Shown: positions 33,001-36,000 of the stretch, one piece after another | Layout: each line of letters opens with the position of its first letter | Position numbering within the stretch: position 1 is the stretch's first letter | Sequence record: PV189405.1 | Origin: Escherichia phage vB_EcoP_phi349 | Length of the DNA stretch: 62,509 bases | Reading direction: 5' to 3' (one strand) | Position numbers: made by a program

Positions 33001-36000
33001 CTTTTTACCCCGGAGAACACCGGCAAGTCCCATAACCGCCATGAGACGTGCCACTGTACATCTGGCCACCCTGATTCCTTCCCGTAACAACTGACGCCAG
33101 ACTTTACGCACACCGTACACCTGATGATTTTCATCGTATACGCGCTGTATCTCTCTCTTCAGCCAGTCGTCGTGCTGCGCACGGGCACTGCGTTTATCCG
33201 GATGATGTCGCTGTTGCTGACAATGGTAATACGTTGACGGGGCAATATGCAGTTCGCTGCATACCGGTCCGACCCCGTACTGCTCACGCAGCTTATCCAG
33301 CAGTGGCATCATTTTTTCCAGAGGCGGTCGAACTCCGCCTTCGCAAAATAAGCGGAAGCCTGGCGAAGGATATCGTTACTGCGGCGCAGTTCACGATTTT
33401 CACGTTCCAGCTCTTTCAGACGCTGACGTTCAGCGCTGGTGAGCCCACCATCACCGCCCCCGGTATCCCGCTCATGCTGGCGAACCCAGACACGCAGAGT
33501 CTCCGGCGTACAGCCAATCTTTGGGGCAATGGAACAAATTGCCGCCCACTGTGAGTCATATTCATCCTGACTTTCCAGAACCATACGAATCGCCCGCTGA
33601 CGGACTTCGGGGGAAAAACGAGTATTTTTAGTCATCCTGTTTACCTCTTTCTCAGGGAGTTTAGTCTCCAGGATTTCCGGGGCGGTTCAAACCAACGAAA
33701 TGGCTGACATGGTGCGCGCCCGTGTGGCTTCCGGTGCATACGCTTCAGAAAGCGAAGTTATTCGTGAAGGGCTTCGTGCACTGAATGAACGCGACAAAGC
33801 AATGGAAGCGTGGTTAATACACTCAGCCGCGCCGCCACTCGACGCTATTCGTGAGAACCTAGGCAAAGGGCACTCCATTTCACAGGTTCGCTCTGAGATT
33901 CGCGCCCGGAACTAATCTGCATGGCATATGAAGTGCCACACTAACAAACTGCTCCAGGTATGGGAATAGTGTCACTTGCAGCACCTATTAGAGATCCGAT
34001 AATGAACATCATAGCAAGGTTCTTTTATTTGATAATTTTCTGCATGGCAACATCAGGATGCACTACCACTACGAAAATAAATCGCGGAGATGAAAAGGAA
34101 CAGTACATCATTGCCTGTGGTGCCGCTACACCATGGGGAGTATGCTATGATAAAGCCAATGCCCTATGTAAAAATGGATATAAAGACATTTTAAAGGAAC
34201 AGGGATTTAACAGGAAAGAATTAACCATTGAGTGTAAATAAGGCCATCATTTGCAACGTTGAAAAAATTCGCCCGTGCTACAGGGAAAAACTCCAGATCC
34301 GCTTCGTTTAACTACGAGGATTACCACTAATGGCGATGTTTACCCCCCCTCATCCTGGAGAAATTATTGCTGATATTCTGGAAGATCAGAATATTGGAAT
34401 CAGGGAACTGGCAAGAGCGCTTGATGTCGCGCCTTCCACTGTTCAGCGACTGGTTTCAGGTAATGCGACAATATCTCCTGAAATGGCTGTTCGTCTCGCT
34501 GCTGTCCTGGGGGGAACTCCGTCTTCATGGATTCGTCTCCAGACGGCATGGAGCCTTGAAAAAGCGGAAAGAGAAGTTGACGTATCTCATCTCTCAACAA
34601 AATACCGCCCGGCAGAAATTTCGCCTCATGCTTAACCACCGCGCCGTCATTCTGGCGGCGTCGGAGAGTGGAGGATATCAGGTTCCGAATTCTGCGTTGT
34701 TCTCCGCGTCCAGGATTTCTTCAATCTTCCGTACTCCCCGATTATTGTATCGGAAGCTTTCTACCTGCTTATCCGAATACGGGGATTTGTCGATGAACCA
34801 TTTCCCGTATTGTTCGGTTTTGAGCATGTAGGTATTGGCAATGCGACCAACCTTGTTAGCGGATATTTTGAGTTTTGCTCCAACTTCTGACGCCGAATAG
34901 TAATGTTCATTAATCATCGGTAGCGGGATTACGTTAGCGCCTACAACGGGATTAACCAGGCTGGCGGCAACGACTTGTTTAGCTTCAGGGGCAAGGTTGG
35001 GGAGGAAGCCGAAAAGGTCTTTCATTGTATCGACGGTCATTTTCAGCGCCCGTGCTTTACGGAATTCCTCAAGGCCGTTAGTCGAATGTTTCGAGGTGAT
35101 TTTTTGTTGCAGTTGCTGTTGCATTGACTCCAGTTGATCGACCAGCGAACGACGGACGGATTTAGATTCACGAGCGGCAACCCGAAGCGCTTGTTTATAG
35201 GTCATCACAATAACAACCTGATCCGCACCGCCTTTTTTCTTATCCATGGGGGTTACGAAAATTTCGTAACCCCCCCCCATCAAGTTCATCTTTGATGCGT
35301 GCAATGAAGTCGTTGTTGCGTACTTCTTTTTCACCGCACAGTCTCCGCGCTTCATTCACCATTTTCAACAGAGCCTGGCTGTCGATAGTTCCATTTTTCA
35401 TTACATTATTTTTCATCGTTTTAACCTCTCAAGCTCGCCGTAGCGAGTTCAGATAAAAGAAATCCCCGCGAGTGCGAGGATTCTTATTCACCTTTGACCA
35501 AGTTGCAGGTTAGCCACGGTTAACCTCCTGCGGCGGTTCTGGTAGCGGCATCCAGTGAGTTGCTTGCTCAATACCATTACCCGGCTTAATCGTTGCATCT
35601 CCGCGCCGAAAGGTGCTTCCGGTATAGCGTGCGGAGCATATTAGCGGTTCAACCAGAGAGCTATCGAAATTCACCGAAATAAGCACGTTCTGGCCCTTTT
35701 CAGGCATTCGATCACTACAGCTTATCCAACTATCCGGAGTTACCGGAGAGTTACCAGCCTCATAAGCGGATTTCATCCAGTGCGTAAGCGTTTCGATGCT
35801 TACACATCCGCAATCAACGTCTATTTTTTCTTTTTGTTCTGACAACCATTCCTGGAATGACAGCTTGGCAGTCTGGCTTGCTGGATCAATTCGTGGCAGG
35901 CCGATATATAGTGGTACATTTCCCGGCTCCATCGAATTGTCGGGACAAATAAACGTGTTACAACCATATTTAACGAGCTCAATTCCCACTGTGTCGATAG

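Follow-up and report, generated by a model that had tools for sequence, protein, structure and literature searches.

The window analysed here, the whole 62,509-nucleotide stretch of Escherichia phage vB_EcoP_phi349 (PV189405.1), belongs to the PA2/PA8/phi346 lineage and has, in its early-left region, an accessory ('moron') cassette of mosaic build, in which an intact orphan antitoxin gene, higA, follows a small lipoprotein gene and the remnants of several toxin-antitoxin (TA) genes. From left to right the cassette consists of parD, five codons of parE, a tail of about 18 codons from a BamE-like lipoprotein gene, a gene for a 79-aa lipoprotein, the last 22 codons of a helix-turn-helix (HTH) antitoxin gene, the last six codons of higB, and higA, with five gene fragments within 700 bp (Table 1). 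It lies on the strand opposite to the surrounding early genes, adjoins an isrK/C4-antirepressor module, and has a GC content of 0.36-0.43 across approximately 33900-34400, compared with 0.5-0.55 in the flanks on either side. The elements are all of known kinds, namely TA remnants, a moron lipoprotein and an insertion sequence (IS). New here are the exact mosaic of five fragments, the IS that inactivates parD and a corrected start for the lipoprotein gene, together with the lipoprotein family, its position in P22-like phages and the link to existing expression data. Taken as a whole, the explanation developed below, which covers the mosaic, its history and the functions of its genes, is considered probable.

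Over 28,003-40,700 the window is 99.95-100% identical, except for one insertion, to the argW-integrated Shiga toxin 2a (Stx2a) prophage of E. coli WG5::PA8, and the 971 bp after the insertion (33690-34660) are 100% identical in PA2, PA8, VT2phi_272, Stx2a_F765 and vB_EcoP_phi346. The phi346 genome and the window are collinear, coordinate for coordinate, up to the insertion. From these comparisons the window appears to hold the genome of an Oslovirus PA2-type Stx2a podophage (short-tailed) in complete, permuted form, and a reading of 1-28,003 as host chromosome was rejected on the collinearity with phi346 and the length of 62,509 bp. A survey of 5426 complete E. coli genomes detected an intact higB in 22, higA in approximately 68, and the arrangement with the lipoprotein gene in 42. 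The copies of this arrangement in the 42 genomes and in 44 phage records are all at least 99% identical.

The higA gene and the chimeric frame upstream of it

The product of higA scores 87.2 bits against TIGR02607 (HigA family antitoxin) over residues 3-81, well above the curated cutoff of 47.7, and 39.7 bits against HTH_3. A single residue (N5T) separates it from the HigA that accompanies an intact HigB in other E. coli prophages. In BLAST searches of the complete E. coli genomes, the sequence from 34308 onward was 99.15% identical over 353 nt to intact higB-higA loci. The example in strain 2014C-3338 (L002) encodes a HigB of 92 aa (PF05015, 77 bits) whose C-terminus, GDAYILNYEDYH, is identical to that of Rts1 HigB (4MCT_B), and its higB (3745-4023) and higA (4023-4328) share the TAATG stop/start overlap present in the window at 34328-34332. 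The Shine-Dalgarno sequence of higA (GAGGA, 34316-34320) lies inside the higB remnant, and retention of the higB tail would have kept the ribosome-binding site of HigA.

An earlier note on this DNA, made from the sequence alone, had described an intact higA preceded by a higB remnant of 35 codons (34226-34330). This description holds in kind: 23 of 23 nt match the end of the intact gene in L002, the stop overlaps the higA ATG as stated, and the C-terminal signature is genuine, with NYEDYH being the exact end of a real HigB. The remnant is, however, six codons long and not 35. Translation of 34226-34330 gives histidine, a stop, valine, a second stop, and then IRPSFATLKKFARATGKNSRSASFNYEDYH and the terminal stop, i.e. 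the proposed frame has two in-frame stops, and 34244-34313 comes from a different antitoxin gene. The 30-aa frame directly upstream of higA yielded zero Pfam matches at E<=1 and a tblastn match to HigB of only E=1.4; only NYEDYH and its stop are derived from HigB. Nothing in the remnant amounts to a HigB toxin gene, i.e. a full RelE-like fold of about 92 aa matching PF05015. Likewise, higA in L002 lies directly downstream of, and overlaps, a higB gene, whereas in the window 23 nt of that gene are left.

In the BLAST searches the frame upstream of higA falls into two unrelated pieces. The left piece matches the 3' end of a gene for a 102-aa HTH antitoxin ending in GPSFATLKKFARATGKKLQIRFV; in strains 2012C-4502 (L004) and JNEC-KY176 (L003) this gene stands directly after that of a Gp49-type (PF05973) toxin. 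An A-run at 34286-34290 contains five A's in the window and six in L003 and L004, a 1-nt deletion and hence a frameshift. Because this deletion moves the frame into register, the antitoxin remnant seemed to form one open reading frame (ORF) with the higB tail. The two remnants join in a common TTAACT (34308-34313). As a worked example, the locus shows that an ORF which plausibly passes for a remnant may in fact combine pieces of three genes.

Differences among higA alleles are almost all synonymous (for L003, 11 of 11 in comparison with L002 and 12 of 13 in comparison with the window), with ratios of nonsynonymous to synonymous substitution rates (dN/dS) of 0.00-0.17. The window allele is nearer to the paired allele of L002 than to the orphan allele of L003, which implies recombination and frustrates the dating of higB loss from allele distances. 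TTAAC stands at either end of the unit made up of higA and the higB tail (34308-34312 and 34632-34636), and L004, which is without higA, has a single TTAAC at the corresponding point, with flanks that otherwise differ. The repeats hint at gain or loss of higA by recombination at TTAAC.

The lipoprotein gene and the interrupted parD

The earlier note was correct that the AT-rich segment encodes a Cys-containing lipoprotein. The N-terminus (MNIIAR-FFYLIIFCMA-TSG-C) comprises a signal peptide, MNIIARFFYLIIFCMATSG, and a lipobox with its cysteine at position 20, and the Thr at +2 agrees with the outer-membrane sorting rule. Cys20 and four further cysteines (39, 48, 56 and 78) are invariant in a 30-sequence alignment, and the residues preceding Cys20 are lipobox-like (SGC, AGC, GGC, PGC, SAC and similar) in 30 of 30 homologues. 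With signal peptide and lipobox both present, the product is a predicted bacterial lipoprotein, i.e. a putative signal peptidase II substrate, and its lipidation is likewise predicted. Comparison with the homologue in the P22-like prophage contig L005 gave dN/dS of 0.11-0.19, and this is therefore a real coding gene.

The earlier note had placed the start at 33960. Homologues begin at the equivalent of ATG 34002 (e.g. P0002 and P0003), and 33937-33991 is the tail of a BamE-like gene. Public records (L001, PA2, PA8 and phi346) contain three wrong starts, ATG 33960 (93 aa), GTG 33969 (90 aa) and ATG 34044 (65 aa), the last of which would remove the signal peptide. The BamE-like tail ends in NCSRYGNSVTCSTY and shares the pattern NCS.YGN.VTCSTY, followed by the stop, with the gene upstream of the lipoprotein homologue in L005. 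Against the Pfam BamE model (cutoff 23.2), the intact BamE-like proteins of L005 and L017 score 20.8 and 26.4 bits, respectively.

The lipoprotein has the family motif CGA..W.VCY.KA..CP.GY...GFNRKE and corresponds to PHROG 9924, for which no function is assigned. Naming by Pfam, NCBIfam and PADLOC-style searches yielded zero families. Among 5.8 billion proteins only two close relatives were found, 82% and approximately 70% identical (the second 81% over 78% of the query), while a HMMER scan of 1.84 billion representatives recovered 129 clusters (E<=1e-3) of 70-100-aa proteins from Proteobacteria. A single-protein scan of viral contigs returned identical Stx-phage copies only, and by tblastn across 50,697 phage records the gene was confined to the Stx lineage. 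An AlphaFold2 model (pLDDT 86) has a beta-beta-alpha-beta-beta order, and comparison with the PDB and BFVD gave no informative match.

Several homologues are located beside genes for DNA delivery. In L005 and L006 the homologue is flanked by the gene for the P22 gp16 ejection protein and that for the tailspike; elsewhere it adjoins ejection-protein genes in prophages of Buttiauxella and Leclercia (L017 and L020), and adjoins the tape-measure gene in a Pseudomonas prophage (L023). In L007 it lies downstream of a gene for an 85-aa Mnt/Arc-like repressor of the ribbon-helix-helix (RHH) type, with an ATGA overlap. A search of 32 genomic loci for a gene conserved beside the lipoprotein found none that was universal; a BamE-like lipoprotein was present in five. 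The Cys-rich lipoprotein stands beside a BamE-domain lipoprotein in L005 (5559-6240), L017 (3670-5088), and L028 and L039 (about 4000-4640), and in the Buttiauxella prophages two more small secreted proteins or lipoproteins lie alongside. These neighbours point to a multi-lipoprotein envelope module, of which no more than a truncated version would have reached the Stx phage.

At the left end of the cassette, parD is interrupted after nt 35 by the IS, and the window has thereby lost the full-length RHH antitoxin. The intact relative in the IS-free L001 scores 53.4 bits against TIGR02606 (cutoff 46.2) and belongs to PHROG 6494; the dN/dS of parD is 0.18. The putative parD promoter lies 36 nt upstream of the ATG and overlaps a divergent isrK promoter-like site. 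Homology to parDE stops approximately 19 nt past the parD stop, and an intact parDE at about 87% identity occurs in 323 genomes.

The inserted element has TGAACCGCCCCGG at both termini and is flanked by a 3-bp target duplication (AAC, 32377-32379 and 33690-33692). Its transposase ORFs, 33635-33309 (108 aa) and 33312-32422 (296 aa), overlap, and an ALIL frameshift pseudoknot (RF01497, 121.5 bits) is located at 33238-33354. Size, inverted repeats, 3-bp duplication and frameshifted overlapping ORFs all agree with the IS3 family, and the element is IS629-like. None of the 42 complete E. coli genomes and none of the 44 phage records with the cassette has the IS at parD. According to PMC10810198, PA2 and PA8 prophages differ in where an IS629 is located.

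Table 1. Coordinates of the cassette, its gene remnants and the inserted element in the window
Feature	Position	Strand	Basis
Candidate sigma-70 promoter of parD, TTGTCG-16 nt-TATCAT with TG (prediction)	32282..32309	+	Consensus scan of IS-free L001, mapped to the window
parD 5' fragment, 35 nt (11 codons + 2 nt)	32345..32379	+	100% identity to L001 parD; tblastn, ParD residues 1-12
IS3-family element (IS629-like), 1310 bp	32380..33689	-	Inverted ends, target duplication, ORFs, ALIL
parD 3' fragment, codons 12-85	33690..33915	+	Split from the 5' part by the IS
parE 5' remnant, MAYEV, 5 codons	33922..33936	+	Aligns with the intact parE start MTYEV... of parDE locus L008
3' remnant of BamE-like lipoprotein gene, about 18 codons	33937..33991	+	DNA alignment to L005 5930-5990
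Small lipoprotein gene, 79 aa	34002..34241	+	Homologue starts, family alignment, dN/dS
3' remnant of HTH antitoxin gene of Gp49-type (PF05973) TA pair, last 22 codons + stop	34244..34311	+	94-96% identical to intact L003, L004
higB 3' remnant, NYEDYH + stop, 6 codons (23 nt)	34308..34330	+	23/23 nt = end of intact higB in L002
higA, orphan antitoxin, 101 aa, N-terminal HTH	34330..34635	+	TIGR02607

Around the cassette, the isrK Hfq-binding small RNA (sRNA) and C4 antisense RNA pair is present in two copies, at 32073-32255 and 45341-45528 (both minus strand; Rfam, 53-77 bits). The first copy lies between an ORF6N/antirepressor gene (about 31343-32020, minus strand) and parD and resembles a P1 immI-like antirepressor control module. 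An anti-repressor gene convergent with higA (34678-35416, minus strand) consists of two overlapping ORFs of 58 aa (35240-35416) and 225 aa (34678-35355); RefSeq calls it frameshifted in WG5::PA8, and it is either a pseudogene or subject to programmed frameshifting. A tRNA-Met/Arg/Arg cluster, followed by STnc100 and the AsxR anti-stx2 sRNA, occurs at 55137-55388 and 56794-57053. These are the usual neighbours of stx2, and their presence confirms that the toxin region is inside the window.

Assembly, expression and proposed functions

The site beside the ORF6N/antirepressor gene carries cargo that varies by prophage. It holds higBA in L002 and only the Gp49-HTH TA pair in L004, while L003 carries the complete Gp49-HTH pair followed by the higB tail and higA, with the same HTH/higB junction as the window and no lipoprotein gene. 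In L009, a RelE-HTH TA pair (PF06296) precedes higA, and 12 nt of higB are left at an independent junction, which shows a second, independent trimming of higB in which higA was again spared. All cassette junctions are illegitimate joins, two of them at microhomologies (GCCATC and TTAACT); the lipoprotein segment is joined at GCCATC on its right and inside parE on its left.

The site would thus be a cassette-exchange hot spot with alternative TA pairs. Because L003 has the HTH/higB junction of the window without a lipoprotein gene, higB was most likely gone before the lipoprotein segment arrived, and the statement in the earlier note that this segment replaced the rest of higB is too simple. 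A parDE-linked segment with a two-lipoprotein module, the only close relatives of which appear to reside in P22-like prophages, would subsequently have replaced everything from parE codon 5 to the end of the HTH antitoxin gene. The lipoprotein cassette thereby most likely displaced most of the Gp49-HTH pair, not higB. In this history the antitoxin genes would have stood at the outer edges (parD-parE ... higB-higA) with the toxins facing inward, where only toxin-removing rearrangements are survivable. Since a toxin without its antitoxin is lethal, replacement of the interior would therefore leave two orphan antitoxins around new cargo. Selection for the arrangement need not be invoked on this explanation, and the locus would show how TA-rich hot spots decay into orphan antitoxins.

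An unexpressed lipoprotein ORF, which the earlier note gave as a refuting condition, is not what published RNA-seq of the MG1655::phiPA8 lysogen shows: an identical ORF is transcribed there (PMC6580645 Table S6B). In the three replicates, reads per kilobase per million mapped reads (RPKM) were 290, 483 and 599 for parD, 381, 509 and 596 for the lipoprotein ORF, and 227, 277 and 369 for higA, compared with 97, 142 and 209 for cI and 60-125 for the opposite-strand neighbours. The three cassette genes are therefore at approximately 2-3 times the level of cI and take about the 4th, 5th and 8th places among the 85 genes of the phage. In IS-free phages parD, the lipoprotein gene and higA probably form one lysogen transcript that starts from the predicted parD promoter, since the similar levels of the three genes fit a single transcript from the promoter-like site at 32282-32309. 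In phi349 the IS cuts the cassette off from this promoter, and expression may be reduced.

The most likely function of HigA, one proposed tentatively and with the case close to balanced, is neutralisation of the cognate HigB of related prophages. The HigB proteins of the 22 genomes are all chromosomal and have a partner HigA 99-100% identical in protein to that of the window, and the single paired locus inspected (L002) is prophage-borne. Because a search of plasmids for a near-identical HigB returned a best match of 67% identity, a rival prophage is a likelier target than a plasmid, the carrier of HigB considered in the earlier note; the proposal of that note that an orphan HigA can neutralise incoming toxins is plausible. 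Given its near-identity to HigB-paired alleles, the HigA of the window would be expected to bind and neutralise HigB and to repress the operon. Through neutralisation, the phage or its lysogen would evade abortive infection or addiction that is based on HigB.

For the lipoprotein a role in superinfection exclusion, as in the earlier note, is proposed, in which the protein would alter an envelope component used by incoming phages. The position of its homologues, in the sieA/immI interval or beside a tape-measure gene, supports this by analogy and is not proof. The interval from gene 16 to gene 9 is where P22 itself carries sieA, along with mnt (PMC10883804). PA2-type Stx phages use BamA as their receptor (PMC6020778), and in combination with the BamE-like ancestral neighbour of the lipoprotein this is a lead, not evidence. 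A bolder version holds that the lipoprotein represents a new outer-membrane family that blocks rival phage entry, possibly with the BAM complex as its target, and that with HigA a phage would, for the first time in a verified case, have retained a classical type II antitoxin as an anti-defence or anti-addiction device against HigB-armed prophages; this combination is judged decidedly unlikely. Should the functional proposals for both genes hold, this clinically important Stx2a lineage (O157:H7 clade 8 and O111) would carry a lysogen-expressed unit with two phage-competition tools, HigA to disarm the HigB of rival prophages and a lipoprotein of an uncharacterised envelope family with relatives in the sieA position of P22-like phages. 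This would bear on Stx phage spread and coexistence and provide the first experimental handle on PHROG 9924.

Several observations weigh against these functional proposals. Neither higA nor the lipoprotein has been tied to a phenotype by experiment, and no cognate HigB or ParE was found across the window. The RNA-seq derives from the IS-free sister phage PA8, with strand-specificity unchecked, and a promoter scan found no plus-strand promoter-like site between the IS and higA. Many members of the lipoprotein family are chromosomal and without evident phage context (e.g. L028 and L039). The synonymous divergence of higA may predate the orphan state or come from recombination, and the greater closeness of the window allele to a paired allele than to the second orphan allele prevents its attribution to the period without higB.

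One competing account is that of a recent recombination scar in which the orphan antitoxins and the lipoprotein are functionless hitch-hikers in a young lineage and toxin-less remnants are free of cost. With all 42 genomic and 44 phage copies at least 99% identical, the lineage is too young for decay and the retention of the genes is uninformative on selection. The density of gene fragments also fits this account, as does the insertion in parD, which knocks out that antitoxin in an isolated, plaque-forming phage and marks it as dispensable; survivorship bias alone, moreover, predicts that antitoxins are kept and toxins lost. Neutral debris would not, however, be expected to rank among the most highly expressed prophage genes of a lysogen, nor to include a higA that persisted when two or more upstream junctions of independent origin formed (window/L003 and L009) with almost exclusively synonymous allele differences, nor a lipoprotein family that is widespread and under purifying selection. 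On balance this account is regarded as somewhat unlikely.

A different role for both genes is also conceivable, with HigA acting mainly as an Xre-type transcription factor on phage or host promoters and the lipoprotein serving in lysogenic conversion as an envelope factor comparable to lambda Bor (resistance to serum or stress, host colonisation). HigA is an HTH_3 DNA-binding protein, and HigA antitoxins repress promoters. Transcriptional repression by Rts1 HigB-HigA is the subject of PMC12266136. The cassette furthermore abuts the isrK/C4-antirepressor control region with its overlapping divergent promoter-like sites. Where family members are chromosomal, the lipoprotein is paired with a BamE-like one and has envelope genes next to it, among them an L028 neighbour of 1287 aa that is TamB-like by eye from its translation alone. 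These features are offset by the deletion here of the native higBA operator region upstream of higB, and by the phage-borne lipoprotein genes, whose place beside DNA-delivery genes is a better fit to exclusion. No palindromic target for HigA was found either, though no search aimed at one was made. This account is improbable and given little weight. More improbable by far is a new RHH-antitoxin/lipoprotein pair, with the lipoprotein as toxic or effector partner and parD not an orphan. The TA-like ATGA overlap of the RHH and lipoprotein genes in L007, and the position of parD, an RHH gene, directly upstream in the window, speak for such a pair. However, the lipoprotein occurs without an RHH neighbour in L005, L006, L017, L020, L023, L028 and L039, the parD-lipoprotein join is illegitimate and contains parE and BamE-like fragments, and the IS breaks parD in a viable phage. 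On the neighbour survey, the junction and the IS, the lipoprotein as toxin partner of an RHH protein was rejected as close to refuted.

Comparison with known systems

A 2025 paper had already described ParD and HigA as orphan antitoxins of phi346 and phi349, in passages that call their relevance unclear and speculate on anti-defence (PMC12502783). The locus is the same as the one described here, with phi346 identical over 33690-34660. Absent from those passages are the remnants of toxin genes, the remnant of a third antitoxin, the intervening lipoprotein and the relatives with intact toxins; ParD is listed there as an orphan antitoxin in phi349, and a text search of the paper found no mention of its disruption by the IS. 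T4 Dmd, which acts against RnlA/LsoA, and the pseudo-ToxI of phage phiTE are cited in the same passages as analogies, and no verified classical type II antitoxin in an anti-addiction role is known according to them. The likeness to these anti-addiction systems is that a mobile element carries the neutralising half only and could disarm a resident toxin; unlike HigA, Dmd and pseudo-ToxI are not classical cognate antitoxins.

Among characterised TA systems, the closest solved structure to the HigA of the window is that of E. coli CFT073 HigA (2ICP/2ICT; E=5e-27 against 2ICP), and HigA of the Proteus vulgaris Rts1 HigB-HigA complex (4MCT/4MCX) is matched at E=1e-19. Elsewhere in E. coli prophages, the HigB partner of this HigA resembles Rts1 HigB (E=3e-32) and has the same end, NGDAYILNYEDYH; by sequence, this toxin is closely related to the ribosome-dependent endoribonuclease HigB of Rts1. 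The order with the toxin first is kept, as is the TAATG overlap. In contrast to Rts1, the toxin here amounts to six codons, the native promoter/operator is gone, higA follows an unrelated lipoprotein gene, and the carrier is a phage, not a plasmid.

The lipoprotein represents a distinct, unnamed family. With lambda Bor and other moron lipoproteins it has in common a low-GC, lysogen-expressed small gene opposite in orientation to its neighbours; it differs from Bor in the absence of homology and in a source module that contains a BamE-like lipoprotein. Comparison with the lipoproteins T5 Llp, phi80/N15 Cor and TP-J34 Ltp and with the inner-membrane protein P22 SieA revealed no sequence or fold similarity, and the likeness to them is that of a small envelope protein expressed from a prophage. 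To SieA there is a further likeness of place, with lipoprotein homologues occupying the same gene 16-gene 9 interval beside mnt. For TP-J34 Ltp, whose target is the tape-measure protein, the parallel is a lipoprotein homologue that adjoins a tape-measure gene.

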